DNA of 32,000 nucleotides from positions 30,001 through 62,000 of the forward strand of contig OY970357.1 of NCBI GenBank assembly GCA_963718585.1, given 5' to 3'. How positions within the stretch are numbered: position 1 is the first letter of the stretch; the number at the start of each line of letters is the position of its first letter. The translations under genes were made by a program, and so were the position numbers. Source of the DNA: Candidatus Saccharimonadota bacterium (GTDB lineage: Bacteria > Patescibacteriota > Patescibacteriia > 2-12-FULL-60-25). Shown in pieces: positions 8,794-30,469 of the stretch. The notes beneath the pieces were generated by a model, which was not told where the DNA came from, made no database searches, and saw only the letters and a program-made list of their open reading frames with translations.

Positions 8794-9273
8794 TCAGGAA
8801 CGGCGGTATCTTTCGAGTAGACGGCGTGTCGGATGCCCATTCCGGGTGCCGAAGGTCATATGATGGATCACCGGTACGCCACGCTTCGAACTGTTGGAGA
8901 TAGCTCGATCCCCACCAAGGGCAAAACCGATGTGACGATGTTCCAGACCGTCCCGCTCGATGATCGGTTCCCAGATCAGGATATCGCCTGCGCGGACCGT
9001 TCGGACGCTTCTCCACCCGGATCGTTGCAGGTCGCGGACCGTTCCGTCCACGGTCAGGTGGGGTTCGTGGATCCAACCGAAATGATGAAGGATCGTGGAC
9101 ACGAAAAAGGCACAGGAGAGGCGGCCGTTCTTCACCAGATCGGACTTCCGACCATCGATCGTCGCATAGAAGTGCTGGAAGATCCGCGACCGGATGCTTC
9201 CGCGGACCATGGCGAGATAAGTCTCGTTGTCGCGCGGAACGATCTGGGATCTACGCGTGGTGGAGTGCGTCAT
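8794..9273 (-). CDS. NlpC/P60-like (papain-fold) hydrolase-like protein, no signal peptide
   Basis: The order Cys...GD-hydrophobic...His matches NlpC/P60: GRLSCAFFVSTIL, VRAGDILIW, HIGFALGGDRAISNSS. The upstream part of the 236-aa ORF overlaps rpe. The likely start is ATG 9273 (23-nt overlap with the rpe end) or 9207. Confidence 0.5.
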   Translation of the reverse strand: MTHSTTRRSQIVPRDNETYLAMVRGSIRSRIFQHFYATIDGRKSDLVKNGRLSCAFFVSTILHHFGWIHEPHLTVDGTVRDLQRSGWRSVRTVRAGDILIWEPIIERDGLEHRHIGFALGGDRAISNSSKRGVPVIHHMTFGTRNGHPTRRLLERYRRS

Positions 9274-15879: not shown

Positions 15880-16919
15880 CCATGCAGCCAGACCGCAGAC
15901 TCATCGATGTCGCCGCGCCCGCAGATTGGGAGGCGTTCGTCGCTCATCAACCGTATGCGCAATTCCTGCAGTCCTGGGCTTGGGGAGAATTCCGTCATCA
16001 GACCGGATGTCCGATCCGGCGGTTTGCCCTTGCGGACCATGAGGGACGGTGGCGTGCCGCGATCCAACTGGAATATCGGAAACGGCGATTCATGGGATAT
16101 TGGTTCGCGCCGCGCGGACCGATCTTCTCCCATACGCTCACAGCGGAGGGGCGCCGAGATGCGATCCGTGAGCTGACCGAAGCCCTGCTCCAACATCCGG
16201 AGTTGCGGAGCCATGTGCTTTTTTGGCGCATGGAGCCGCTCTCGCGACTCGCGGATCCGGAAGGACTGGTCCCGCTTTCGTTCCGACGATCTCCGGCACA
16301 GGATCCTTCCTCGACCTTGGTCCTTGACCTCTCGCGTTCGGAAGAGGATCTGCTCGCGGCCATGCATGAAAAGACGCGATACAACATCCGCGTGGCCGAA
16401 CGGCACGGGGTCCGGACGCGCCTCGGATCTACGCCGGCAGATACGGACGCGTTCCTCGCCCTCATGAGCGAAACGGCGACCCGGGATCACTTCGTTCAGC
16501 GAGACCTCACGTACGTTCGGAAGACATTGGAGATTCTTCGCGCGCGCGGTATGGCGGCGTTACGTCTCGCGGAAATCGAAGGTCGGATCGTCGTGGCGAA
16601 CATGGAGATCCGATATGGGGATACGGTGACGTATCTCTACGGCGCGTCGGCTTCGGCGGATCGAAAGACCATGGCGCCATACGCCTTGCATTGGGATGCG
16701 ATCCGCGCGGCGAAGCAGGATGGATTCACGCGGTATGATCTGTGGGGCGCAAATCCGCTATCCAAAGCCATGTTCTCCTATAAATCCTCGTGGGAAGGGA
16801 TCACGCGATTCAAACGGGGTTGGGGAGGCGAGCGGGTCGATCTTGTCGGGACGTGGGATCTGCCATTTAACCTCTTTCTGTATCGGCTTGCGTTTCTGAA
16901 GCAGTTTTTCCGAAATTGA
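15876..16919 (+). CDS. FemAB-family peptidoglycan interpeptide-bridge aminoacyltransferase
   Basis: 347 aa with FLQSWAWGEF, KTRYNIRVAERHGV, YLYGASASADRKTMAPYALHW and RFKRGWGG blocks. GTG 15876 overlaps the ruvA TGA (GTGA); the alternative start is ATG 15882. Confidence 0.85.
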   Translation: MTMQPDRRLIDVAAPADWEAFVAHQPYAQFLQSWAWGEFRHQTGCPIRRFALADHEGRWRAAIQLEYRKRRFMGYWFAPRGPIFSHTLTAEGRRDAIRELTEALLQHPELRSHVLFWRMEPLSRLADPEGLVPLSFRRSPAQDPSSTLVLDLSRSEEDLLAAMHEKTRYNIRVAERHGVRTRLGSTPADTDAFLALMSETATRDHFVQRDLTYVRKTLEILRARGMAALRLAEIEGRIVVANMEIRYGDTVTYLYGASASADRKTMAPYALHWDAIRAAKQDGFTRYDLWGANPLSKAMFSYKSSWEGITRFKRGWGGERVDLVGTWDLPFNLFLYRLAFLKQFFRN

Positions 16920-16989
16920 GGTCATCCGTGCGCCCCGGTCCGGAAAAAGGTACACTGGAAACGTTCTTATTCTTAACCGTTATTTTCAT

Positions 16990-17271
16990 ATGATGGGAAA
17001 AATGTGCGGTGTCCATAAGGTCGCGTGGGTCCTCCTGATCGTTGGAGGTCTCAATTGGGGCCTTGTCGGGTTGAATCCCGGCTGGAACGTGGTCCATCTG
17101 CTCCTGGGTAGTTGGATGTGGCTCGAGCGGCTCGTCTACATCCTCGTCGGTCTGTCGGCGATCGCCATGCTCGGCGTCACCAAGTGTTGCATGACCTGCA
17201 ATGCCAAGGAGAAGAAAAGTATGGGGGGCTCTGGTTCCGGCCAGATGCCTGGTGGTGGACAGAAGATGTGA
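16990..17271 (+). CDS. DUF378 (YuzA-like) small membrane protein with Cys/Gly-rich tail
   Basis: VAWVLLIVGGLNWGLVGL...LVYILVGLSAI matches the DUF378 signature. C-terminal tail KCCMTCNAKEKKSMGGSGSGQMPGGGQKM. Confidence 0.8.
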   Translation: MMGKMCGVHKVAWVLLIVGGLNWGLVGLNPGWNVVHLLLGSWMWLERLVYILVGLSAIAMLGVTKCCMTCNAKEKKSMGGSGSGQMPGGGQKM

Positions 17272-17281
17272 CAGAACGAAA

Positions 17282-17310
17282 AGATCAGGCGAAAGCCTGG
17301 TCTTTTATTT
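17282..17310 (+). terminator. intrinsic terminator after the DUF378 gene
   Basis: AGATCAGGC-GAAA-GCCTGGTCT (one G-U pair) followed by TTTTATTT. Confidence 0.75.
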
Positions 17311-17440
17311 CAGCCATCTCATCTTAGTTCCGCATATCGAGAACCGGACGCCGGTGGGCGAGCGAGGCTGGATCCCCTGCGAGGACCATTGACCATCTCC
17401 TGTGTAGCCTCTGAATCCGATGGTCGGCGGATCAGGATGA

Positions 17441-17477
17441 TAAAAAGAAAAACCCCTTCCTTCGAAAAGGTCGGGGT
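17441..17477 (-). terminator. intrinsic terminator after the CDP-alcohol phosphatidyltransferase gene
   Basis: Minus-sense ACCCCGACCTT-TTCG-AAGGAAGGGGT (with internal loop) followed by TTTTTCTTTTTAT. Confidence 0.7.
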
Positions 17478-17481
17478 GAGT

Positions 17482-18207
17482 TCAGAGGTCTTTGTGGGTG
17501 AAGTTCTCACCCACGTGGTCAACGACCTCGTCGATCCGAGGATGAAGACGGATCCGCGAGAGGACGCTCAAGACACCGAGGACGAGCGCAATGCTGAAGA
17601 GCGTGTTCGCAATGCGCGCATCATGCGTCCATCTGAGGATGACAGGGAGCACAGCGATCAGCCCGAACATCTGGGTGAGTGTTTTGATCTTGCCGATCCA
17701 CGTGGCGCTTTCGCCGCGCGTATAGTCACCGCCGAGAGAGAACGGATGGCGCATCAACGTCCCAAGGAGGTCGATACCGATGATCGCGATGACGAGCCAG
17801 ACCTCAATGGCATGGGACCACGCCATATAGACGAGCGTGGGGAGGACGCGGCCTTTGTCCGCGAGCGGATCGATCCGTTTACCGAACGCGATGTCTTCTG
17901 CGGTCCGCGGGATCCCGGCCTCGGTCATGGCCTTGGCCATCTTGCCATCGATCACGTCGAGGATGCAGCCGGTAACACCGAGCTGGAAACCGACCATATG
18001 CTGATGGCAGAAGAAGAGTACGGCACCGGCCCAATAAAAGGCGAACCCCCAAAAGGTGATCCAGTTCGGGGAGAGGTACGGTTTCGTACTCCATGCCGCC
18101 AGTGTCCGCTTTGGGATGATGAGGATCGACACGCATTGGATGAGGCCGATCACAAGCGCGATGTCTGCGCGAAGGACCCATGGGAGCGATTCCCAGAACG
18201 TGTGCAT
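17482..18207 (-). CDS. CDP-alcohol phosphatidyltransferase family protein
   Basis: Polytopic membrane protein with DVIDGKMAK...GKRIDPLADK, i.e. the D-G-x2-A-[RK]...G-x3-D-x3-D motif with a longer than usual insert. GGAGG lies just upstream of ATG 18207. Confidence 0.8.
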   Translation of the reverse strand: MHTFWESLPWVLRADIALVIGLIQCVSILIIPKRTLAAWSTKPYLSPNWITFWGFAFYWAGAVLFFCHQHMVGFQLGVTGCILDVIDGKMAKAMTEAGIPRTAEDIAFGKRIDPLADKGRVLPTLVYMAWSHAIEVWLVIAIIGIDLLGTLMRHPFSLGGDYTRGESATWIGKIKTLTQMFGLIAVLPVILRWTHDARIANTLFSIALVLGVLSVLSRIRLHPRIDEVVDHVGENFTHKDL

Positions 18208-18240
18208 CCAACCTCCGGTGGTGGGTGAAAGGACGCCGTC

Positions 18241-18269
18241 GGTGTATCACGACACCGGAGAAGGTTCAA
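18241..18269 (-). promoter_or_regulatory. candidate promoter for 17482..18207
   Basis: Minus-sense TTGAAC (18269..18264), 17-nt spacer, TACACC (18246..18241). Confidence 0.45.
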
Positions 18270-18282
18270 GATGCGGGATCGA

Positions 18283-18309
18283 AAAGACAGCGGTCGTCCC
18301 GCTGTCTTT
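18283..18309 (-). terminator. hairpin/terminator after tRNA-Arg
   Basis: Minus-sense AAAGACAGCGG-GACGA-CCGCTGTCTTT followed by T and then CGAT. The U-tract is short. Confidence 0.5.
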
Positions 18310-18312
18310 ACA

Positions 18313-18389
18313 TGGTGCACCCCAGACGATTCGAACGTCTGACCTCTTCCTTCGGAGGGAAGCGCTCTATCCAGCTGAGCTAGGGGTGC
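18313..18389 (-). tRNA. tRNA-Arg (anticodon CCG), CCA encoded
   Basis: The 77-nt minus-sense sequence GCACCCCTAGCTCAGCTGGATAGAGCGCTTCCCTCCGAAGGAAGAGGTCAGACGTTCGAATCGTCTGGGGTGCACCA folds as a cloverleaf. Acceptor GCACCCC/GGGGTGC, anticodon loop CUCCGAA, T-loop TTCGAAT. Confidence 0.9.
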
Positions 18390-18403
18390 ATGGAAGTGGT
18401 GAG

Positions 18404-18432
18404 AGCGTAGCGGAGTTCTCGTTGCTTTTCAA
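18404..18432 (-). promoter_or_regulatory. candidate promoter for tRNA-Arg
   Basis: Minus-sense TTGAAA (18432..18427), 17-nt spacer, TACGCT (18409..18404). The tRNA 5' end follows 14 nt later. Confidence 0.5.
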
Positions 18433-18455
18433 GCTTACGCGCCCGCATCTTCATC

Positions 18456-18484
18456 TTGACGCATGGGTCGTCATTCGATATTAT
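18456..18484 (+). promoter_or_regulatory. sigma-70-type promoter for the tRNA-Lys unit
   Basis: TTGACG (18456..18461), 17-nt spacer, TATTAT (18479..18484). This is the best -10 element in the window. Confidence 0.7.
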
Positions 18485-18585
18485 CCGGCCACAAGAAAAA
18501 AGGCCTGCGTCGGCATGGAGAACCATACAGACGCGGCGTTCCCTCGGGATATACGGGGCTTTGCCCCGTCATCCCACACTCACTT

Positions 18586-18661
18586 GCGTCGGTAGCTCAG
18601 CTGGTAGAGCAGGGGCCTCTTAAGCCCAAGGTCCTGGGTTCGATCCCCAGCCGACGCACCA
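18586..18661 (+). tRNA. tRNA-Lys (anticodon CUU), CCA encoded
   Basis: The 76-nt sequence GCGTCGGTAGCTCAGCTGGTAGAGCAGGGGCCTCTTAAGCCCAAGGTCCTGGGTTCGATCCCCAGCCGACGCACCA folds as a cloverleaf. Acceptor GCGTCGG/CCGACGC, anticodon loop CUCUUAA, T-arm CTGGG-TTCGATC-CCCAG. Confidence 0.9.
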
Positions 18662-18663
18662 TG

Positions 18664-18693
18664 AAGAACCCCGCATTTGCGGGGTTCTTGTTT
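18664..18693 (+). terminator. hairpin/terminator T1 directly after tRNA-Lys
   Basis: AAGAACCCCGC-ATTT-GCGGGGTTCTT followed by GTTTG. The T-run is interrupted. Confidence 0.6.
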
Positions 18694-18696
18694 GAT

Positions 18697-18823
18697 GGCT
18701 GGGGATCGAACCAGGGAAGGGTGAAACCGTGAGGTTTCACTTGCTGAGGAAAGCGCACGAAAACCCGAAGGTTTTCGTGGAAGGAGCGGAGCGACGATGT
18801 AAGCATCCCCAGCCGACGCACCA
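18697..18823 (+). repeat. structured module 1 ending in a perfect 19-nt copy of the tRNA-Lys 3' end
   Basis: The 5' arm GGCTGGGGATCGAACC (18697..18712) is the exact reverse complement of tRNA positions 18637..18652. Hairpins lie at 18721..18740 (GTGA loop) and 18756..18779. The 3' end ATCCCCAGCCGACGCACCA (18805..18823) is identical to 18643..18661. Confidence 0.8.
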
Positions 18824-18828
18824 AGACG

Positions 18829-18856
18829 AAGATCCCCACATGGGGATTTTTGTTTT
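18829..18856 (+). terminator. hairpin/terminator T2 after module 1
   Basis: AAGATCCCC-ACAT-GGGGATTTT followed by TGTTTT. Confidence 0.65.
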
Positions 18857-18859
18857 GGC

Positions 18860-18981
18860 GGCTGGGAGATCGAATGGGGAGGGTGATGGGAACCGGGAGG
18901 TTCCCATGACGGAAGTTTGAAACCGATGGGTTTCAAAAAAGCGAGCGAAGCGAGCGCGTGAGATCCCCAGCCGACGCACCA
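18860..18981 (+). repeat. structured module 2 ending in a perfect 19-nt copy of the tRNA-Lys 3' end
   Basis: The 5' arm is GGCTGGGAGATCGAAT (18860..18875). Hairpins lie at 18886..18907 (GGGA loop) and 18916..18937. The 3' end ATCCCCAGCCGACGCACCA is at 18963..18981. The order of elements is the same as in module 1. Confidence 0.8.
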
Positions 18982-18985
18982 ATGG

Positions 18986-19013
18986 AAAGACCTCGTCACC
19001 GCGGGGTCTTTTT
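18986..19013 (+). terminator. intrinsic terminator T3 after module 2
   Basis: AAGACCTCG-TCACCG-CGGGGTCTT (one G-U pair) followed by TTTG. It abuts the -35 element of the sigma-factor gene. Confidence 0.7.
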
Positions 19014-19017
19014 GTCA

Positions 19018-19045
19018 TTGACAACGTCTCTTCGTTCCATAAAGC
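19018..19045 (+). promoter_or_regulatory. candidate promoter for the sigma-factor gene
   Basis: Perfect -35 TTGACA (19018..19023). The -10 is weak (TAAAGC, 19040..19045, 16-nt spacer). ATG at 19057 has no SD. Confidence 0.4.
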
Positions 19046-19056
19046 TGAAAAATGCC

Positions 19057-20487
19057 ATGAGGAAGAAACGGAAGAGCGGCAGTGTTCCTTCACCATCTGT
19101 GACGCGTGCGTCGCAGCCTCCCGATCAGGAGGTGAGCTCGGCCCGGGATGAGCTCGCCCCGTACTTCGCCCTTCGTCGGATGTACCCCGTGCTGACCCAA
19201 GAGGAGTTCAACAGCGCGCTCAAGGTCTATCGGACGGCAAAGACCAAGGCAGCTCGCGAGCATGCTCGCGACAAGCTGACCTTCTCGAACATCGGGTTGA
19301 TCATCACCATCGCGTATCGGTCTCGGCATCATGGCGTGCGGTTGAGCCTGCTCGTCAATGAAGCGCTCGCCGTCATGGCGACGATCGTGCTCGACAAGTT
19401 CGATGAGACGCGTGGATTGAAGATCTCGACCTACGCCTCGTGGTGGATCCGCAGCGCGATCCACAACTCGATCCGCATGCACAAGACGGGAATGGCGGTC
19501 AGTATTCCGGAATACCAGATGATCAATCTGGGGCTCATCACCCGCGCGCGGAAGGAATTCAAGCGCGCGAATGGGAGAGTGCCGGATCAGGAGGAGCTCC
19601 TGAAGACCATCAATGGGTTCGATGCGAAAGTAGCGAAGGCGATAACGATGGAGAAGCTGAAGAACACGCTCCAATACGCCAGCATCCATGTCGATTCGTT
19701 CGACGCCCCCCTTCATCCGGATGCGGAGTTCACGCTTGGAGATATCCTTCCAGCGCCAGTACAGGATGGGCATTCGATCGAGGAGCGACTTTCCGAACCC
19801 GGTGGGATCGGGGAGCGGGTCCAAGAGGCCCTTGCAGAACTCGCGACCGTCAAGCCGCGTCATCATCTCATCGTTCGGTGCCGATACGGCTTGGACGGTC
19901 AATATCCAGAGACGCTCAAGACCGCCGGGAGCCGATTGAAGATCTCGCGTGAACGCGCGCGGCAGATCCAGAATGAGGCGCTTCGGTTCATGAGAAAGAT
20001 CACCGGGATCTCGGAAGAGCGGCTTGATGCGGTCCTGCTCGCGCTCGGGGAGATGGCCGTCTTCGAACCGGAAGTAGAGTCGCTCCCGAACGGCATGTCA
20101 TTGAACGGAGATGAGATGGAGGAGGTCTTCGCGATCTTCTCGGAGCATGCTGTGGACTGGCGCGGCCGTGGGACGTACCGCGTCCTCGCACCGTTTCAGA
20201 CGCTCTGCGCGCGTGTTCCTGTCCCGTCGGATGTCATCCGTCGGACCCTCCACAGTTTCAACACCTACAAGTGGATCGAAGCGGTTGAGGACCAGGATGC
20301 CGTGATCCTTCTGCGGACGGATCAGGTCCCGGCGCTGAAAAAGCCAGGTTCGGAGAAGAAGACCGCGAAGAAAAAGCGGTCTACGAAGACAGGAAAGAAG
20401 CGTCCGGTGAAGCGCCTGACGTTCGCGACACAGAAGAGCAATATCCGTCTCCGTCAGCGGAGACGGAAGAACGATCAGCCGACGTGA
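19057..20487 (+). CDS. sigma-70 family RNA polymerase sigma factor with ~160-aa C-terminal extension and basic tail
   Basis: Region 2 (DKFDETRGLKISTYASWWIRSAIHNSI), a region 3-like segment, and region 4 (IVRCRYGLDG...TLKTAGSRLKISRERARQIQNEALRFMRKI). Start set at ATG 19057; the GTG 18958 extension would read through the tRNA-end repeat and terminator T3. Confidence 0.85.
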   Translation: MRKKRKSGSVPSPSVTRASQPPDQEVSSARDELAPYFALRRMYPVLTQEEFNSALKVYRTAKTKAAREHARDKLTFSNIGLIITIAYRSRHHGVRLSLLVNEALAVMATIVLDKFDETRGLKISTYASWWIRSAIHNSIRMHKTGMAVSIPEYQMINLGLITRARKEFKRANGRVPDQEELLKTINGFDAKVAKAITMEKLKNTLQYASIHVDSFDAPLHPDAEFTLGDILPAPVQDGHSIEERLSEPGGIGERVQEALAELATVKPRHHLIVRCRYGLDGQYPETLKTAGSRLKISRERARQIQNEALRFMRKITGISEERLDAVLLALGEMAVFEPEVESLPNGMSLNGDEMEEVFAIFSEHAVDWRGRGTYRVLAPFQTLCARVPVPSDVIRRTLHSFNTYKWIEAVEDQDAVILLRTDQVPALKKPGSEKKTAKKKRSTKTGKKRPVKRLTFATQKSNIRLRQRRRKNDQPT

Positions 20488-20503
20488 GTCGCTCTTTGAC
20501 CTC

Positions 20504-20534
20504 ATCCCGCCCTTCGCGAAGGGCGGGATTTTTG
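20504..20534 (+). terminator. intrinsic terminator after the sigma-factor gene
   Basis: Perfect palindrome ATCCCGCCCTTCG/CGAAGGGCGGGAT followed by TTTTTG. Confidence 0.85.
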
Positions 20535-20538
20535 ACGG

Positions 20539-20566
20539 TTGACAATTCGGCCCAAAATGGCATAGT
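20539..20566 (+). promoter_or_regulatory. candidate promoter for 20629..20898
   Basis: TTGACA (20539..20544), 16-nt spacer, CATAGT (20561..20566). Confidence 0.5.
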
Positions 20567-20628
20567 GTCGTCAGCTCCTTACTGCTGCTTCTGATCCGAT
20601 GATGTGTGAAAACGGAAGGAGAGAGACG

Positions 20629-20898
20629 ATGACAAGTACGGTTCGACTCATTCCCGTGGGTCAGGCAGAGATCCGGTCCGAAGAGGAAGAGTCAGAGAGT
20701 GTGGAGCTCATTGCGCTCCAGGGAGGATCTCTCGGCCAGTTTTACGAGAAGCGGCACGATCCGCGCCTGAGTCGGTTCGCCGGCAAGCGGTGTCAGGGCA
20801 GTAAGCCCGATGGATCACAATGCACGACGCGGATCGCGTCATACAATCACGATGCGGAGGGCCTCTGCTTCGTCTGCCAGCGACAGCGCAAAATATAG
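20629..20898 (+). CDS. small acidic protein with C-terminal four-Cys zinc-ribbon-like motif
   Basis: GGAAGGAGAG lies 5 nt upstream of ATG 20629. The 89-aa product carries C-x9-C...C-x2-C (KRCQGSKPDGSQC...LCFVCQRQ). No family recognised. Confidence 0.6.
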   Translation: MTSTVRLIPVGQAEIRSEEEESESVELIALQGGSLGQFYEKRHDPRLSRFAGKRCQGSKPDGSQCTTRIASYNHDAEGLCFVCQRQRKI

Positions 20899-20921
20899 GC
20901 GGCGCACGCGTCGACACTTTC

Positions 20922-20954
20922 ACCCCGGTCATCTCGACCGGGGTTTCTGTTATT
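20922..20954 (+). terminator. intrinsic terminator after 20629..20898
   Basis: ACCCCGGTC-ATCTC-GACCGGGGT followed by TTCTGTTATT. Confidence 0.75.
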
Positions 20955-21003
20955 CCGCCGCATGGACAACCCCGGTCCAAACGGCTAACCTTCCAACCAT
21001 TCT

Positions 21004-22281
21004 ATGCGTCTCACAGGCCTCTTCACCAAGACTTCCAAGACCCCTCCGGCCGATGCCGAATCCGCGAACGCGCGATTCCTCGTTCAGGCCGGGTATGTCG
21101 ACCAGCTCATGGCCGGTGTCTACACGTATCTCCCGCTGGGTTTGCGCGTACTGAATCGGATCCAGAACATCGTCCGTGATGAGATGGATGCACTTGGCGC
21201 CCAGGAGGTCCTCATGCCTGCGCTCACCCCGGCCGAGCCGTGGAAGATCACCGGTCGTTGGACCGACCCGGGGCCTGAGGTCATGTTCCAGTTCAAAGGC
21301 GCTGGCGACCGCGATCTCGGCCTTGGCTGGACGCACGAGGAGATCGTGACCCCACTCCTGAAGAAATTCATCCAGTCGTACAAGGATCTGCCCGTGGCCG
21401 TCTATCAGGTGCAGGACAAATTCCGCAACGAGCTGCGTGCCAAGTCCGGGATCCTGCGCGGGCGCGAATTCAACATGAAGGATCTGTACAGCTTCCATGC
21501 GTCGGTCGAGGAGCTCGAAGCCTACTATGACAAGGCATTGGAGGCGTATCTCCGCGTGTTTCGACGGTGCGGGATCGATGCGATCCCGACGGAAGCGTCG
21601 GGCGGTGCGTTTTCCAAGGTCAGTCATGAATTTCAGATGCCGACCGAGAGCGGGGAGGATGTGATCTTCGTGAATCAGGCCGGTGATTATGCCTGGAATC
21701 GCGAGGTCGTGCCGGACATGAAGGATGGCGATGACGCACCGGATGGCTCCGGTCCGGTCCGTGAGATGAAAGCGATCGAGGTCGGGAACATCTTCAAATT
21801 GAAGACGCGCTTCACGGACGCATTCAATGTCGAATTCACGGACGAGGACGGATCGCGGAAAAAGGTGCAGATGGGATGCTACGGCATCGGTCCGTCGCGC
21901 GTCATGGGCGCGATCGTCGAGGCATCGCATGACGACCGTGGGATCATCTGGCCAAAGGTCGTGGCACCGTACGCCGTCCATATCGTCTCGATCAACGCGA
22001 AGAGTGACGAGATGCAGGACCGACTCATCGAGGCGGCCGAGGATCTGCATGACACCCTCGTGCAGGAAGGGATCGAGGTATTGTGGGATGACCGTGAGGT
22101 CAGTGCCGGACAGAAGCTTGCGGACGCGGACCTCATCGGATGTCCGCTCCGTCTGGTGATCTCGGAGAAAACGCTCGTAGAAGAGTCTGCGGAATGGAAA
22201 CTGCGTGCGACCGAAGAGATGAAGCTTGTGAATTTGCAGGACGCGGTCGAAGAGATCCGTTCGTTCGTGAAAGAAGTCTAA
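21004..22281 (+). CDS. proS: prolyl-tRNA synthetase, bacterial-type core without INS editing domain
   Basis: 425 aa with class II motifs (FRNELRAKSGILRGREFNMKDLYSFH; MGCYGIGPSRVMGAIVE) and an anticodon-binding domain. Only ~25 aa sit where E. coli-type ProRS carries the ~180-aa INS. Confidence 0.95.
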   Translation: MRLTGLFTKTSKTPPADAESANARFLVQAGYVDQLMAGVYTYLPLGLRVLNRIQNIVRDEMDALGAQEVLMPALTPAEPWKITGRWTDPGPEVMFQFKGAGDRDLGLGWTHEEIVTPLLKKFIQSYKDLPVAVYQVQDKFRNELRAKSGILRGREFNMKDLYSFHASVEELEAYYDKALEAYLRVFRRCGIDAIPTEASGGAFSKVSHEFQMPTESGEDVIFVNQAGDYAWNREVVPDMKDGDDAPDGSGPVREMKAIEVGNIFKLKTRFTDAFNVEFTDEDGSRKKVQMGCYGIGPSRVMGAIVEASHDDRGIIWPKVVAPYAVHIVSINAKSDEMQDRLIEAAEDLHDTLVQEGIEVLWDDREVSAGQKLADADLIGCPLRLVISEKTLVEESAEWKLRATEEMKLVNLQDAVEEIRSFVKEV

Positions 22282-23482: not shown

Positions 23483-25168
23483 TCAATGATCAACGAGGCG
23501 TTTACGCATGTACGTTCCCGCCAACCGATATCCGAGCGATCGGTAATAGGCGCGGACGCCGATCCCGCTGATGACGGCGAGATCCCGGTATCCCTCGCGT
23601 ACCGCGATGGCTTCGGCCCGCCGCATGAGCTCGCGCCCGTACCCTTTGTGCTGCGCCGCGTCCGTACGCCCTTGTTTGAGCGCTAGCGCCGTTCCGTAGG
23701 TATGCAATTCGCGGACGATCGCTGCGTCACGTAGTTCGGGGAGGGCGTCTTCGATCTTCCGAGATTCTCGGTCAACCCGCGGATCTGACGCGTAGGGTTC
23801 AGATGTACGGACGTGCTCCGGGTCATTCGGCAGGCGAAGTCGCAAAAAGGCGAAGACCGCACGACGGTCCGGATCCTCCATGCTTAAAAAGACCTCGCGC
23901 CCACCGGCGTTCTCATACGTTTCTTCGAAGAGTTGCGGGGTGACGGTCGCAGGATCGATCTCGGTCACGTGTCCGACTTCGCGGCAACGGAGGCATTGGC
24001 AGGAAAGTCCGCGCCGTTTCATCTCGGATTCGATGGTCTCGCGAAGGTTCGTGATCTTATTTCCGTATGAGATCGCATGTTCAGGAAAGTCGCGGATGAG
24101 ACGAGAGATCCGGCAATATGGCGGCACAACGGTCTGCATGGCGATCAATAGCTCCTTCAGTGTCTCGCCCTCCAAAGGCGTGAATCGTCCCTCCTTGGAC
24201 CAGTCATGAAGCTCTGCGGTAGGCAGGACGACGCAGGGATAGAGCTTGATCATATCCGGACGGAATCGTGGATCCGTGAAGAGCGTGCGAAAGTCTTCCA
24301 GGTCTCGTTCCGGCGTGGACCCAGGTTGACCGGGCAGGATGTGAAAGTCCGTTTTGAGTCCGGCTTGTTTGAGGAGCGCGACCGCACGCACCGTTGCCTC
24401 GACCGTATGGCCCCGCTGGGTCAGCGCGAGGACCTCGTCCTGCAAGGTCTGTACCCCGAGTTCCACGCGCGTGCACCCGAGTTCGCGCAGACGCTGGATC
24501 TCCACGGCATTCACCCAATCTGGACGTGTCTCGATCGTGAGTCCGATGATCCGATACTGGGCAGACTCGTTGGCACGTTGAGTCGTCGCAAGGTTCGCGA
24601 AGCGACGTTTGTGGCCGGATGCTCCCAAGTGATTGGCCGCATCGAAACAGCGTTTGATGAACCAGCGGCGATAGTCCCAGCGGTAGGAGGACCATGTCCC
24701 GCCTTTGATGATGAGCTCGATCTTTTCCGCGCGATGCCCATTTCGTTCCAGTGTCCGCACGCGCTGGAACACCTGATCGTATGGATCGAATCGTAAGGAC
24801 AGGGCGCGCGCGGCAGCTGGTTCGCTCGCAAGGTAGCTTTTGGGCATCCGCGCTTCGGTCGGGCAGTAGACGCACTTGCCCGGGCAGGGATATGGCTTCG
24901 TCAGGACCGTGATCGGCGCGACGCCGGAATCCGTGCGGACATCCTTCACACGGAGGAGCCGTTCGAGAGCGGTCGTTTGCGGGATCCGTCCATGCGTGAC
25001 GGCCTTGCGGTACGTGGTCCAAAGCTCCTGTGCATCCGGGAAGCGGTATGGCGTGCCCTTCAACCGACGCCGCATGACGGTCCATAAACGCTGCCGATCT
25101 CGGAGATCGGTCGTCAGAGCGTCGGAGAGTATGCGCTCCACGAGCGCGGTCGGTGGACGTTCAGGCAT
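23483..25168 (-). CDS. elp3: Elp3-type radical SAM / GNAT tRNA U34 side-chain (cm5U) synthase
   Basis: PYPCPGKCVYCP radical-SAM cluster motif, an Elp3 central region, and a C-terminal GNAT domain (HKGYGRELMRRAEAIAVREGY...). Start set at ATG 25168, because the longer ORF (to 25450) overlaps the divergent methyltransferase gene. Confidence 0.9.
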   Translation of the reverse strand: MPERPPTALVERILSDALTTDLRDRQRLWTVMRRRLKGTPYRFPDAQELWTTYRKAVTHGRIPQTTALERLLRVKDVRTDSGVAPITVLTKPYPCPGKCVYCPTEARMPKSYLASEPAAARALSLRFDPYDQVFQRVRTLERNGHRAEKIELIIKGGTWSSYRWDYRRWFIKRCFDAANHLGASGHKRRFANLATTQRANESAQYRIIGLTIETRPDWVNAVEIQRLRELGCTRVELGVQTLQDEVLALTQRGHTVEATVRAVALLKQAGLKTDFHILPGQPGSTPERDLEDFRTLFTDPRFRPDMIKLYPCVVLPTAELHDWSKEGRFTPLEGETLKELLIAMQTVVPPYCRISRLIRDFPEHAISYGNKITNLRETIESEMKRRGLSCQCLRCREVGHVTEIDPATVTPQLFEETYENAGGREVFLSMEDPDRRAVFAFLRLRLPNDPEHVRTSEPYASDPRVDRESRKIEDALPELRDAAIVRELHTYGTALALKQGRTDAAQHKGYGRELMRRAEAIAVREGYRDLAVISGIGVRAYYRSLGYRLAGTYMRKRLVDH

Positions 25169-25183
25169 TTCGTTGGGTAGAGT
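25154..25183 (+). promoter_or_regulatory. candidate promoter for the methyltransferase gene (leaderless geometry)
   Basis: TGGACG (25154..25159), 18-nt spacer, TAGAGT (25178..25183). The ATG at 25193 follows 9 nt after the -10 element, with no SD. The -35 element lies inside the first elp3 codons. Confidence 0.4.
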
Positions 25184-25192
25184 GAACACAGC

Positions 25193-25942
25193 ATGACGCA
25201 GAGTGTCGAAGCCATCAAGCGGTCCGTCGCCGCCTTCTACCAGACGTATGGGAAGGATTTTTCTGCGACCCGGCGCGGCACCTGGGACGTGATGCGTCTG
25301 ATCCTCGAGGTCTTGCGTCCCGGCGATACGCTTGTGGACGTCGGAGCGGGGAACGCCCGGCTCGCCCGTGAGGTCCCGAGCAGTGTGCGGTACATCGGGA
25401 TCGAACCATCGGAGACCATGCGGGCTGAAGCGCAACGGTTCGTGGCACAACGGAAGGAAGGGGATCTGCGCGCCGGCGGATTTCCGCGTTTACCCGTGGG
25501 GGACGCGGAAGCGGATGCGGTCGCTTGCATCGCCGTGCTCCACCATCTCACGCCGGCAGAGCGATTCCCGGCCATTGCAGAGCTCCATCGGATCCTTCGT
25601 CCGGGAGGCGTCCTCATCCTGACCGTCTGGAATCTGCGTTGTCGGCGGTTTGCTCGCTTGTCGACGCTTGCCGCTGCGTGGTTCCAATGGTCGCTTGTCG
25701 CCGGCGGAGGTCCGGGTGATCTTTGGATGCCGTGGCAGGGTGGATCCGATGAGGCAAAGCGATACGTCCACTGCTTCACCCCGGTGGAACTCCGTTCGTA
25801 TTTCGACGCGGAACACTGGCACATGGAGCGGTGCGAGCCCTGGGCGCGCGGACAAACCGCATCCGTTTGGAACGGGCCGAATCTTGTCGTCGTCGCGCGT
25901 AAAAAAATCCCGCCGAAGCGGGAGGAGGAGCGGCCATACTAG
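25193..25942 (+). CDS. class I SAM-dependent methyltransferase, Trm9/ALKBH8-MTase-like
   Basis: Motif I LVDVGAGNARLA, plus blocks that line up with yeast Trm9 / human ALKBH8 as I recall them: FYQTYGKDFSATRRGTW, ACIAVLHHLTPAERF..L.RILRPGGVLILTVW, DLWMPW, RYVHCFTPVEL, NLVVVARKK. Confidence 0.75.
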   Translation: MTQSVEAIKRSVAAFYQTYGKDFSATRRGTWDVMRLILEVLRPGDTLVDVGAGNARLAREVPSSVRYIGIEPSETMRAEAQRFVAQRKEGDLRAGGFPRLPVGDAEADAVACIAVLHHLTPAERFPAIAELHRILRPGGVLILTVWNLRCRRFARLSTLAAAWFQWSLVAGGGPGDLWMPWQGGSDEAKRYVHCFTPVELRSYFDAEHWHMERCEPWARGQTASVWNGPNLVVVARKKIPPKREEERPY

Positions 25943-27845: not shown

Positions 27846-29381
27846 CTAGCGGGCGTATTCGATGATGCGGGTCTCGCGGATGAGGGTCACGCGGACCTCA
27901 CCCGGATACTTGAGCTCGGCTTCCACTTTGTGTGCGATGTCCTTGGCAAGCTGGGTCGCGGCAAAGTCGTCGATCTGTTGCGGGTTCACGAACACGCGGA
28001 CCTCGCGTCCGGCTTGGATGGCGTAGACCTTTTCAACGCCCGGGAAGGACGACGCGGCCAGTTCGAGATCTTCCAAGCGCTTCACGTACAGCTCGAACGA
28101 GTCCTTGCGCGCGCCGGGTCGGGCACCGGAGATGGCGTCTGCGGCCTTCACGATCACGGCTTCGAGTGTCTTTGGTTTATCCTCGTGATGGCCGATCGAC
28201 TGGTAGCACAGCTCTTCGGGGAATCCGAATTTCTTCATGATCTGATAGCCGAGTTCGGGGTGGCCGCCCTGCATGTCGTGGTCCACGCCTTTGCCGATGT
28301 CGTGGAAGAGGCCGCCGACCTTGCAGACTTTCACGTCCGCATGGAGTTCCTCCGCCATCATGGCGGAGAGATTCGCGACTTCCATGGAGTGCATGAGCGC
28401 ATTTTGACCGAAGGATGTGCGGTATTTGAGACGGCCCAGGATCTGGATGAGCTTTGGATCGATCCCGGTCATGGGGATCCCGAGTTGATACAACGCATCT
28501 TCGCCCGCTTTTTTGATGTCGATCGCGAGCTCCTTTTTCGCTTCGTCGATCGCCGTCTCGATGCGTCCTGGATGGATACGGCCGTCTTTGAGCAGTTTTG
28601 CGAGTGCGTGCTTTGCCACCTGGCGTCGAATGGGGGAGAACCCGGAGATCGTGAGGATCCCGGGCTGATCATCCACGATGAGTTCACACCCGGTGAGCCA
28701 TTCGAGCGCCTTGATGTTGCGGCCTTCCTTCCCGATGATCCGTCCTTTCATGTCGTCGCTCGGAAGCTCGATGTAAGACGTGGTCGTCTCGGAGACCGTA
28801 CTCGAAGCGAGTCGCTGGATGGCGACGGCGATGATGTTCTTCGCCTTGCGTTCGATCTCGTCGGAATCTTGCTGGTCGAGTTTCCGCATGCGGCTCATGA
28901 GCGCGTCTTGGTTGTCGCGTTCCACGACCTGCATCAGGCGCTCCTGTGCCTGCTCCTGTGTGAGTTGGGCGATGGTCTCCAAACGCTTCGACTCCTCCGC
29001 CTCGAGTTCAGCGAGCCGCTTTTCGCCTTCGGTAAGTTTTGTGGAGCGCTCCTCCAAGGATTTCCGCGTTTCATCCATCTCCAAGATTTTCTTTCCGAAT
29101 TCGGCTTCGCGCTCGGAAAGCTGTTGTCGATCCTTCTTGGATTCTTCGGTCAACCGTTTTTCCTCTATGCGGGCATCCTCGAGGATCTTGATGGCTTTGT
29201 CTTTTGCCTTGACGAGGACATCCTGCTGCTTGGACTCAGCATCTGCCAAGATGTGCTTGGCTTTTGCCTCGGCCTCGTCGACCTGTTGTTGGATTTTCTT
29301 TCCTTTGTCTGAAACGATGAGCTTTGCGATCACGGCGCCGATCGCCGCGCCGATGATGAGCCCGATAAGGGCGTACAACAT
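27846..29381 (-). CDS. rny: ribonuclease Y
   Basis: 511 aa. N-terminal TM helix (MLYALIGLIIGAAIGAVIAKLIV), a coiled-coil region, a KH domain (GRIIGKEGRNIKALE) and an HD domain (GGLFHDIGK...). Confidence 0.95.
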   Translation of the reverse strand: MLYALIGLIIGAAIGAVIAKLIVSDKGKKIQQQVDEAEAKAKHILADAESKQQDVLVKAKDKAIKILEDARIEEKRLTEESKKDRQQLSEREAEFGKKILEMDETRKSLEERSTKLTEGEKRLAELEAEESKRLETIAQLTQEQAQERLMQVVERDNQDALMSRMRKLDQQDSDEIERKAKNIIAVAIQRLASSTVSETTTSYIELPSDDMKGRIIGKEGRNIKALEWLTGCELIVDDQPGILTISGFSPIRRQVAKHALAKLLKDGRIHPGRIETAIDEAKKELAIDIKKAGEDALYQLGIPMTGIDPKLIQILGRLKYRTSFGQNALMHSMEVANLSAMMAEELHADVKVCKVGGLFHDIGKGVDHDMQGGHPELGYQIMKKFGFPEELCYQSIGHHEDKPKTLEAVIVKAADAISGARPGARKDSFELYVKRLEDLELAASSFPGVEKVYAIQAGREVRVFVNPQQIDDFAATQLAKDIAHKVEAELKYPGEVRVTLIRETRIIEYAR

Positions 29382-29680: not shown

Positions 29681-30469
29681 CTACGGTGGAAGCTCGCCGT
29701 TTTTGGCCAGCTCCTCAAGACGCGTCGCGTCATCGACTCGATAGTCGCCGACGCGGGTACGGCGAAGCTGGGTGAGATACGCGCCACAGCCGAGCGCACG
29801 TCCGATGTCATCGGCCAGGGTGCGGATGTACGTTCCGGAGGAGCAGGTGACCTGGAATTTCAGGAACGGCCATTCATAATCCACGAGTCGTAGGTCATGG
29901 ATGGTCACGGTCTTCACCGGACGCATTTCCTCCGTCGCCTTCCCTTTCCGTGCGAGTTCGTACAATTTCTTACCGCCGACCTTCTTCGCAGAATGGAGCG
30001 GCGCTTTTTGATCGTGTGATCCTTGGAACCGCTTCAAGATGTCGATGACGTCGTCGATCGTCGGGCGTTCATATCCTTTATTCTCCGTGATCTCGCCCTC
30101 GGGGTCGAACGTCGTGCTCGTCGCACCGAGCCGTGCGGTCGCCTCATACGTCTTATCGAGTCCGACGAGTGCGGTCAGCTTTTTGGTCGCTGGGCCGACA
30201 CCGACGATCAAGAGCCCGGTCGCGAACGGATCGAGCGTTCCAGCGTGACCGATCCGGCGGATCTTCAAGATGCCGCGCAGTTTTGCGACGACATCGTGGC
30301 TCGTCCATCCTGTGGGTTTATCGATCAAGAGAAGACCCCCAGGATCGCGACCCGCTTGGTCTTCGCTACGCTCCACGCTCACCGGTCCGTCGAGTACGTC
30401 TCGCGCGTCGCTCGCTCCAGACCGGCGCGTCTCATCGATCCTGGAGGTCTTCGGGACTTTTTGTGACAT
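29681..30469 (-). CDS. truB: tRNA pseudouridine(55) synthase TruB
   Basis: LLIDKPTGWTSHDVV...RIGHAGTLDPFATGLLIVGVG with the catalytic Asp motif. There is a ~45-aa N-terminal extension with no alternative Met. Confidence 0.9.
   Translation of the reverse strand: MSQKVPKTSRIDETRRSGASDARDVLDGPVSVERSEDQAGRDPGGLLLIDKPTGWTSHDVVAKLRGILKIRRIGHAGTLDPFATGLLIVGVGPATKKLTALVGLDKTYEATARLGATSTTFDPEGEITENKGYERPTIDDVIDILKRFQGSHDQKAPLHSAKKVGGKKLYELARKGKATEEMRPVKTVTIHDLRLVDYEWPFLKFQVTCSSGTYIRTLADDIGRALGCGAYLTQLRRTRVGDYRVDDATRLEELAKNGELPP

Follow-up and report, generated by a model that had tools for sequence, protein, structure and literature searches.

The stretch of DNA analysed here, called the window throughout, comprises 32,000 nucleotides (nt) of contig OY970357.1 (positions 30,001 to 62,000, forward strand) from assembly GCA_963718585.1 of a Candidatus Saccharimonadota bacterium. 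It carries a tRNA-Lys(CUU) gene that is followed on the same strand by two tandem modules, each closed by an exact repeat of the tRNA's final 19 nt. The modules are apparently elements of the tRNA-linked repeat (TLR) or RtT type and not a new kind of element, and apparently the first to be noted outside Enterobacterales in the literature searched.

The tRNA-Lys gene and its two downstream modules

The features of the locus are collected in Table 1. The repeated 19-mer, ATCCCCAGCCGACGCACCA, spans the tRNA-Lys 3' end from the T-loop residue A58 through the 3' strands of the T-stem and the acceptor stem and the discriminator to CCA. Three exact sites are present in the window, at 18643, 18805, and 18963, with periods of 162 and 158 nt; no extra site is found in the window at up to 3 mismatches, and three matches were reached in 0 of 100 shuffles. 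The tRNA and the third copy have 20 nt in common. A hairpin with a T-run begins within 3-5 nt of every copy, with z-scores of -4.8 to -6.2. A simple terminator scan made no plus-strand call for any of the three hairpins (T1, T2, and T3), its sole match being T2 on the minus strand. Both the triplication and the stem-loop with a T-run behind each copy had been claimed in an earlier reading of the letters alone (the sequence-only reading), whose coordinates and sequences all hold.

The two repeat units, 18662-18823 and 18824-18981, can be aligned along their whole length, with ~60% identity when the 19-mer is set aside, which bears out the shared architecture proposed earlier for the two segments. 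The first unit begins 1 nt past tRNA-Lys on the plus strand. The parts of each unit are a terminator, an inverted T-arm as the 5' arm, a pair of long hairpins (a and b), a mini-hairpin of the form GC-GNA-GC flanked by G.A, and the tail. The module 1 arm contains the perfect 16-nt reverse complement of the tRNA T-arm noticed before, and the match extends beyond it (Table 1). The inverted similarity of the module 2 arm reaches upstream across the T-run as far as the acceptor portion of tail 1 (18850-18866 vs 18808-18824, 76%). In both predicted module folds (z -4.4 and -4.8), the arm pairs with the 19-mer, as had been proposed, in a closing helix GGCUGGGGAU/AUCCCCAGCC that leaves GACGCACCA unpaired. 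The hairpin-a loops, GTGA and GGGA, are GNRA loops as described, and the hairpin-b loops, CGAA and GATG, are not. The RAACC-N4-GGTTY core, reported to be shared by all four hairpins, occurs four times in the modules and once elsewhere in the 32 kb, where 0.06 are expected. The sequence GAGCGRAGCGA is found in the 32 kb only at two equivalent module positions (expected 0.19), and it could form a GC-GNA-GC mini-hairpin flanked by tandem G.A, a structure that appears in part in the predicted folds. No further module copies exist within the window.

The sequence-only reading had also pointed to compensatory stem substitutions beside an invariant 19-mer. Between unit 1 and unit 2, ten pairs are changed on both sides (three in the terminator, three in hairpin a, and four in hairpin b) and none is broken in these three hairpins, a result that is matched by 0 of 500 shuffles and lost when the pairing partners are slid. 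This covariation rests on two sequences only and is as strong as two can give. Compensatory changes at ~40% divergence argue for selection on pairing. Together with the invariant tails within units that are otherwise ~60% identical, they show at the level of sequence that the hairpins and the tail are under constraint.

Other identities of the modules were considered and rejected. Their open reading frames (ORFs) are only frame-accidental and cross terminators and the tRNA, and there is no tpr-like conserved peptide. A minus-strand pseudo-tRNA was considered because the reverse complement of the module begins with GCGTCGG and ends in a T-arm, but it has no 3' acceptor strand and the T-runs are on the plus strand. 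A primer-binding-site-like role was set aside as the arm is complementary to the T-arm and not to the 3' terminal 18 nt.

Table 1. Positions of the sequence features at the tRNA-Lys locus (window coordinates).
Feature	Position	Strand	Sequence or composition	Energy and remarks
Promoter-like site, sigma-70 type	18456..18484	+	TTGACG-17-TATTAT	Upstream of the tRNA-Lys unit
Leader hairpin	18507..18534	+	GCGTC...GACGC, with second tRNA 5' acceptor strand GCGTCGG at 18507-18513	Context only
tRNA-Lys(CUU) gene	18586..18661	+	Encoded CCA	ARAGORN and Rfam
Tail copy 0	18643-18661	+	tRNA-Lys 3' 19 nt, T-loop A58 to CCA
Terminator T1	18664..18696	+	11-bp hairpin, then interrupted T-run TTGTTTGAT	-20.8 kcal/mol, z -4.85
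Module 1 5' arm	18697..18717	+	Inverted tRNA T-arm (21 nt, 90%)	First 10 nt pair with tail 1
Module 1 hairpin a	18721..18740	+	GTGAAACC-GTGA-GGTTTCAC
Module 1 hairpin b	18756..18779	+	CACGAAAACC-CGAA-GGTTTTCGTG
Module 1 mini-hairpin c	18783..18795	+	GGAGCGGAGCGAC, GC-GGA-GC core between tandem G.A, holds GAGCGRAGCGA	G.A pairing putative
Tail 1	18805..18823	+	Exact repeat of tRNA 3' 19 nt	10 nt paired with arm, GACGCACCA unpaired
Terminator T2	18829..18858	+	Hairpin + TTTTTGTTTT	-23.2 kcal/mol, z -6.2; 3 compensatory changes vs T1
Module 2 5' arm	18860..18875	+	GGCTGGGAGATCGAAT
Module 2 hairpin a	18886..18907	+	ATGGGAACC-GGGA-GGTTCCCAT
Module 2 hairpin b	18916..18937	+	TTTGAAACC-GATG-GGTTTCAAA
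Module 2 mini-hairpin c	18941..18955	+	GCGAGCGAAGCGAGC	Leading 14 nt = word in seven E. coli TLRs
Tail 2	18963..18981	+	Exact repeat of tRNA 3' 19 nt	20 nt if G18962 is included
Terminator T3	18986..19013	+		-18.6 kcal/mol, z -4.8; final one ahead of sigma-70 gene (ATG 19057)

Comparison with the tRNA-linked repeats of Escherichia coli

TLRs go back to Egan & Landy (1978) and Rudd (1999), both as cited in PMC8144298. In Escherichia coli, 22 such elements are spread over ten loci, each of which holds one to five (Stenum et al. 2021, PMC8144298). By the traits that PMC8144298 summarises from Rudd (1999), a TLR lies on the same strand right downstream of a stable RNA gene in a tRNA or rRNA operon, its final 18-19 bp equal the 3' end of that gene, and it is co-transcribed with the operon and matured into a discrete RNA. 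In the literature searched, TLRs are described solely for E. coli and other Enterobacterales, and, reported since 1978, they have no accepted function. The sequence-only reading knew of no described RNA family with the layout found in the window, and on this point it is corrected: the layout is that of the TLR family, represented in Rfam by RtT (RF00391). Judged from their sequences, the window modules display the sequence features that define TLRs, namely the location and strand, a tail identity of 19-20 nt, and two units of 162 and 158 bp.

Eight TLR loci of E. coli K-12 (L032-L039) were examined, with coordinates from the strain table of PMC8144298. At the tRNA operons (tyrT/tyrV, serX, proK, lysT-lysQ, lysV, and argV-argQ), the TLRs are like the window modules in that they directly follow the tRNA gene on the same strand as 1-5 tandem units of ~100-180 bp, with measured unit lengths of 98-181 bp. 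Their tail is the 3' 18-19 nt of the tRNA from A58, and the identity block begins at A58 in the TLRs of tRNA-Tyr, Ser, Pro, and Arg, the same as in the window. Pairing between the inverted T-arm and the tail spares the final 9 nt; the arms in E. coli are 22-nt inverted copies (86%) of the tRNA-Tyr T-arm. The RtT model of Rfam, which matches the four tyrT/tyrV repeats at 133-138 bits, likewise has a closing helix of arm and tail and a 9-nt unpaired end in ...CCACCA. Hairpin a (GAACC...GGTTC) and hairpin b, which has a 4-nt loop, are followed by a purine-rich GAGCGAAGCGA mini-hairpin beside the tail, and a terminator stands after each end-of-operon unit. The repeats of serX, proK, lysQ, lysV, and rrnB are flanked by terminators, and their parts follow the order tail, terminator, arm, hairpin a, purine tract, hairpin b, GAGCGAAGCGAG, tail, and terminator.

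The window units differ from those of E. coli in several respects. The stems of hairpins a and b are unrelated in sequence, an additional stretch, GGGAAGGGTGA, between the arm and hairpin a is present in the window units only, and the host is a Patescibacteria-type genome of ~1.08 Mb that encodes RNase Y, whereas cleavage of the E. coli TLRs is proposed to occur via RNase E. Units within an E. coli locus are 95% identical and their duplicated terminators are identical, whereas the two window units and the three terminators are ~40% diverged with compensatory changes. The near-identical E. coli copies cannot supply compensatory evidence, and the window units can because they are old enough to have diverged; they thus offer evidence of constraint on the hairpins and the exact tail.

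The small RNAs RrA, RrB, and RrF sit between T1 and T2 of E. coli rrnA, rrnB, and rrnD, after the 5S rRNA (PMC8144298). RrB arises by read-through of rrnB T1, a terminator that is 87% efficient; its 5' end lies 3 nt past the mature 5S 3' end, at a described RNase E site, and its 3' end lies 3 nt past the repeat (PMC8144298). As in the window, a stable-RNA gene is followed by a terminator, a ~150-nt structured element that ends in a copy of the stable RNA 3' end, and a second terminator. These RNAs are read-through products with both ends set by the processing of the upstream RNA. Unlike the modules, they follow 5S rRNA rather than a tRNA. Binding of Hfq and CsrA via GGA loops is described for them. 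The 3'ETS-leuZ of glyW-cysT-leuZ, as cited in PMC8144298, is similar in being a small RNA freed from a tRNA precursor by the tRNA processing machinery, but as described there it is a simple trailer fragment that pairs with other small RNAs and has no tail copy, arm, or tandem units.

Kinship of the modules with the E. coli TLRs at the level of primary sequence is likely. Module 2 and seven E. coli TLRs (lys, serX) share an exact 14-mer, GCGAGCGAAGCGAG, which is located 8 nt from the tail in module 2 and 2-3 nt from it in E. coli. Words of at least 13 nt shared with the E. coli set occur in 0 of 12518 background 105-nt segments of the window, where the maximum is 12, reached in 0.75%. The module 1 word GGAGCGGAGCGAC differs by one base from GGAGCGAAGCGAC of the E. 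coli tyr TLR1, and a tandem-GA motif is reported for RtT in the literature. When a covariance model based solely on four E. coli TLRs is run over both window strands, the best match is module 1 from arm to tail (18698-18823, 12.4 bits, rough E 0.08). The reverse model, built from the two modules, finds TLRs of E. coli (tyr, serX, lysQ, and lysV) and places their boundaries correctly, at E 0.46-2.4, and these matches rank below trivial ones to the T-arm plus tail of tRNA genes.

Several further observations concern the E. coli elements themselves. The long-form arms (tyr, ser, and pro; L032-L038) all carry GATGAGAA instead of the exact inverted T-loop, GATTCGAA, with flanking stem halves that fit each host tRNA; the shared arm loop suggests a common ancestor that was re-tailored per tRNA. 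E. coli TLRs also hold the direct 5' half of the T-arm, for example, GGAGGTTCGA in proK, and a TLR may be read as an inverted T-arm followed by a T-arm that is split at A58 by the body of the element. A truncated extra TLR copy is present at proK (L037, ~405-350, minus strand). A mobilome paper that names rttR was considered and set aside, as the raised coverage there is assigned to RNA/DNA hybrids and not to circles.

A read-through model and its alternatives

On balance, the modules are probably TLRs of the kind found in E. coli tRNA/rRNA operons, that is, sources of RNAs made by terminator read-through and cut at a tRNA-like 3' end, a reading that draws on analogy and on folding models. Transcription would begin at the tRNA-Lys promoter-like site (18456-18484), which is the only one within 18000-19400. 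T1 would halt most polymerases, while a fraction would enter module 1 and a smaller fraction would pass T2 into module 2. Each tail/terminator junction recreates the setting of the genuine tRNA 3' end, and, by analogy with RrB, the enzymes responsible for tRNA-Lys maturation would therefore be expected to cleave behind every tail as well. CCA-ended structured RNAs of ~125-160 nt would be released, at a level that tracks tRNA-Lys transcription. Before cutting, the tRNA T-arm may be bound by the arm and the tRNA 5' acceptor strand by the distal tail; the latter pairing would account for the strict identity of the nine unpaired tail bases to the tRNA. Predicted read-through folds contain both pairings in the window and at E. 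coli proK, serX, lysV, and tyrV, and at these five loci the interleaved folds are 6-19 kcal/mol better than the separate ones. The interleaved fold of the tRNA, T1, and module 1 reaches -127.9 kcal/mol vs -109 for the separate fold; these are minimum-energy folds of 240-400 nt, which are unreliable at such length and ignore co-transcriptional folding.

The sequence-only reading had left three possibilities, namely small RNAs that mimic the tRNA 3' end, remnants of integration sites, and an antisense arm that sequesters the T-arm. Small RNAs with a tRNA 3' end that are co-made with tRNA-Lys appear the best supported of the three and match the description of RtT and RrA/B/F. Pairing of the arm with the T-arm in a read-through transcript would fit as a component of the small-RNA reading and not as its rival, and the integration remnants are disfavoured, as discussed below.

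A number of points weigh against the read-through model. We infer the read-through, the processing, and the RNA product alike by analogy, and three serial terminators would make the module 2 RNA rare. The matches that speak for homology to TLRs at the profile level are only marginal: Rfam RtT (gathering threshold 45 bits) gives no match at E <= 10 on 18400-19200, an nhmmer profile made from the bodies of E. coli TLRs picks up neither module, and the covariance model from four E. coli TLRs does not find module 2. At the gathering threshold and at E <= 10, Rfam reports two tRNAs only, the remaining low-scoring matches being terminator-driven noise. The 14-mer and the GAGCGRAGCGA motif were picked after inspecting the sequences, and part of the likeness is automatic for any element that has a tRNA tail and a tail-pairing arm. 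The modules are missing at eight related loci and decayed in one of the closest relatives (L040), and are therefore dispensable in the lineage. In E. coli, a strain devoid of all 22 TLRs could be built, and rrA/B/F deletions have modest phenotypes only (PMC8144298).

Dispensability of this kind would also be expected if the modules were a neutral or selfish by-product without RNA function, an explanation that we regard as unlikely. Template switching at the terminator palindrome would have inverted the tRNA 3' region to form the arm, slippage or unequal crossing-over would have made the tandem units, and gene conversion would keep the tails alike. The tail, the terminator, and the next arm do form one long interrupted palindrome, and the locus is a rearrangement hot spot with an inverted tRNA pair and differing gap genes. 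The relatives without modules, the decayed arm with only ~55 alignable nt in L040, the truncated extra copy at E. coli proK, and the tolerance of E. coli to the loss of all 22 TLRs (PMC8144298) are in keeping with such an origin as well. However, the three hairpins carry ten compensatory changes and no disruption at ~40% divergence, and all three terminators retain a hairpin and T-run in spite of their differing sequences, which argues against a by-product. Conversion would also have to end precisely at A58 in both copies, and likewise in E. coli, and the mini-hairpin motif in common with E. coli is hard to obtain by local duplication.

It is less probable still that the modules act in cis only, with arms that capture the tRNA-Lys T-arm in read-through transcripts, marking these as misprocessed or diverting them, while the rest of the module is spacer and a free small RNA is irrelevant. 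The complementarity of the arm to 21 nt of the T-arm, beyond the 10 nt needed for module closure, fits this role, as do the interleaved folds of the window and the four E. coli loci. Co-transcriptional folding and tRNA tertiary structure, however, should favour the cloverleaf before the arm exists, energy predictions at this length are unreliable, and hairpins a, b, and c, the exact tail, and the second module would be left unexplained.

Integrase target sites in tRNA genes classically have as their core an identity block that stretches from the T-loop to the 3' end. The 19-mers could thus be recombination cores of the attL/attR type, left by two related miniature integrative elements (CIME-like) that were serially inserted in the tRNA-Lys site by a tyrosine integrase acting in trans, a scenario that seems very improbable. 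Like att sites, the locus directly repeats the T-loop-to-CCA segment; exact cores with diverged interiors are expected from tandem integration of related elements, and the region after tRNA-Lys differs from relative to relative and includes genes of foreign appearance (an Mrr-type nuclease in L040 and GIY-YIG in L043). The interiors, however, are only ~140 bp, have a terminator per copy and conserved hairpins, and carry an inverted T-arm that is not created by att recombination, and the identical E. coli layout follows 5S rRNA and lies between tRNA genes in operons without integrases. Among the window ORFs that were scanned with Pfam, there is no recombinase, integrase, transposase, or phage gene, and the remaining large ORFs look like housekeeping genes. 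The 19-mer has 0 matches in 2.9 million viral contigs, is never found twice in one locus across genome and metagenome collections, and BLAST against phages and plasmids gives only ~27-39 nt matches (E 0.03 to 1), none of which extends beyond the terminator stems. Relatives carry, in place of the integrase-bearing island that the sequence-only reading proposed to look for at their tRNA-Lys loci, the tRNA and one terminator with no second tail.

A wider proposal, which we put forward tentatively, is that TLRs constitute a widespread structured class on the 3' ends of stable-RNA genes across distant phyla, each copy being tailored to its host tRNA around a shared core with the GC-GNA-GC/tandem-G.A mini-hairpin. 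This would point either to a conserved role in tRNA 3' maturation or in the control of read-through, or to an unrecognised process by which the element is moved and re-targeted from one stable-RNA gene to another. The occurrence of the same part order, A58 boundary, and mini-hairpin motif in a reduced genome of ~1 Mb suggests that the layout reflects a general link of tRNA 3' ends, terminators, and read-through. If the likeness is merely convergent, the modules would represent an ordinary lineage-specific duplication. A descriptor for a phylum-wide survey would consist of a tail copy 100-200 nt downstream, an inverted T-arm, and a terminator after each tail.

Related loci and the surroundings of the modules

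The exact 19-mer was found at 14 loci in genome contigs and at 16 in metagenome contigs, and real tRNA-Lys genes account for two in each set. The proposed search for the 19-mer elsewhere gave no two-copy locus in the genome, metagenome, and viral collections. Exact scans overlook relatives with one acceptor-stem pair changed, and such relatives were later located via synteny. FemAB homologs that are 58-64% identical, labelled Patescibacteria or Candidatus Uhrbacteria, are found on contigs with the same gene order, in which the tRNA-Arg/tRNA-Lys pair occupies a variable gap between FemAB and ProRS. At eight related tRNA-Lys loci (L002, L004/L027, L022, L040, L043, L048, L051, and L052/L053), the second tail is absent and one terminator is present. 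In L040, which is among the closest relatives, the terminator is followed by GGCAGGGATCGAAC, an arm-like inverted T-arm, and ~55 nt alignable to the start of module 1 (9105-9205); hairpin a is decayed in this remnant, there is no tail, and an Mrr-type nuclease gene comes next. The remnant is best read as a truncated module, like the extra copy after E. coli proK. The modules are lineage-specific and yet probably predate this single genome.

The FemAB-ProRS gap (window 16919-21004) is a rearrangement hot spot when compared with L004, L040, L043, L045, L047, L048, L049, L051, and L052. With respect to its flanks, the tRNA-Arg/tRNA-Lys pair has opposite orientations in L004, L043, and L052 on the one hand and in the window, L040, L048, and L051 on the other, and the genes in the gap differ, with sigma-70 in the window, the Mrr-type nuclease in L040, GIY-YIG in L043, and an AcrVA2-like gene in L045. 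The sigma-70 family protein encoded directly after T3 (19057-20487, 476 aa) has a best identity of at most 33% among 5.8 billion proteins; Pfam sees region 4 only, and the C-terminal tail is long and rich in Lys/Arg. In syntenic relatives, a sigma gene is lacking here. The divergent tRNA-Arg(CCG) gene lies at 18313-18389 (ARAGORN and Rfam), and no tail copy was found for it.

Logan assemblies of the window genome break inside module 2 (position 1 of L001 = window 18879), and L041 and L042, two samples of one relative, both end at locus position 8865, inside tRNA-Arg. Exact repeats of at least 31 nt, which could account for the Logan breaks, are absent, and population variation at the locus, for example, in module copy number, is possible.

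The window ORFs encode housekeeping proteins, including IleRS, a Ser/Thr kinase, RuvA, FemAB, a CDP-alcohol transferase, sigma-70, ProRS, an ELP3-like enzyme, HU, YmdB, RNase Y, TruB, and IF2. RNase Y (27846-29381, minus strand) and TruB (29681-30469, minus strand) are encoded ~9-11 kb from the modules. TruB is the tRNA pseudouridine-55 synthase, which acts on the T-loop. The presence of an RNase Y gene raises the prospect that cleavage of the E. coli RNase E type may be done by another nuclease here. The ELP3-like radical-SAM/acetyltransferase gene beside ProRS is kept in the lineage (window 23483-25450, minus strand; L004 1332-3059; L052 9986-11734).

Upstream of tRNA-Lys, the stretch ATCCGGCCACAAGAAA right after the promoter-like site is kept in the relatives L004/L027. 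In the tRNA-Lys leader (window 18485-18585), a second tRNA 5' acceptor strand sits ~80-95 nt upstream in an acceptor-like hairpin, and equivalent leader copies are present in L004 (5500-5602) and L052 (8180-8260, minus strand), relatives without modules. The L004 leader resembles a degenerate partial 5' half of tRNA-Lys that includes the CTT anticodon loop, and in L052 a 29-nt direct repeat, CGTCCATAATTCCCTCGTTTGCGTCGGTA, stands at both the leader start and the tRNA start. The leader repeat looks like a 5' counterpart of the 3' tail repeats.

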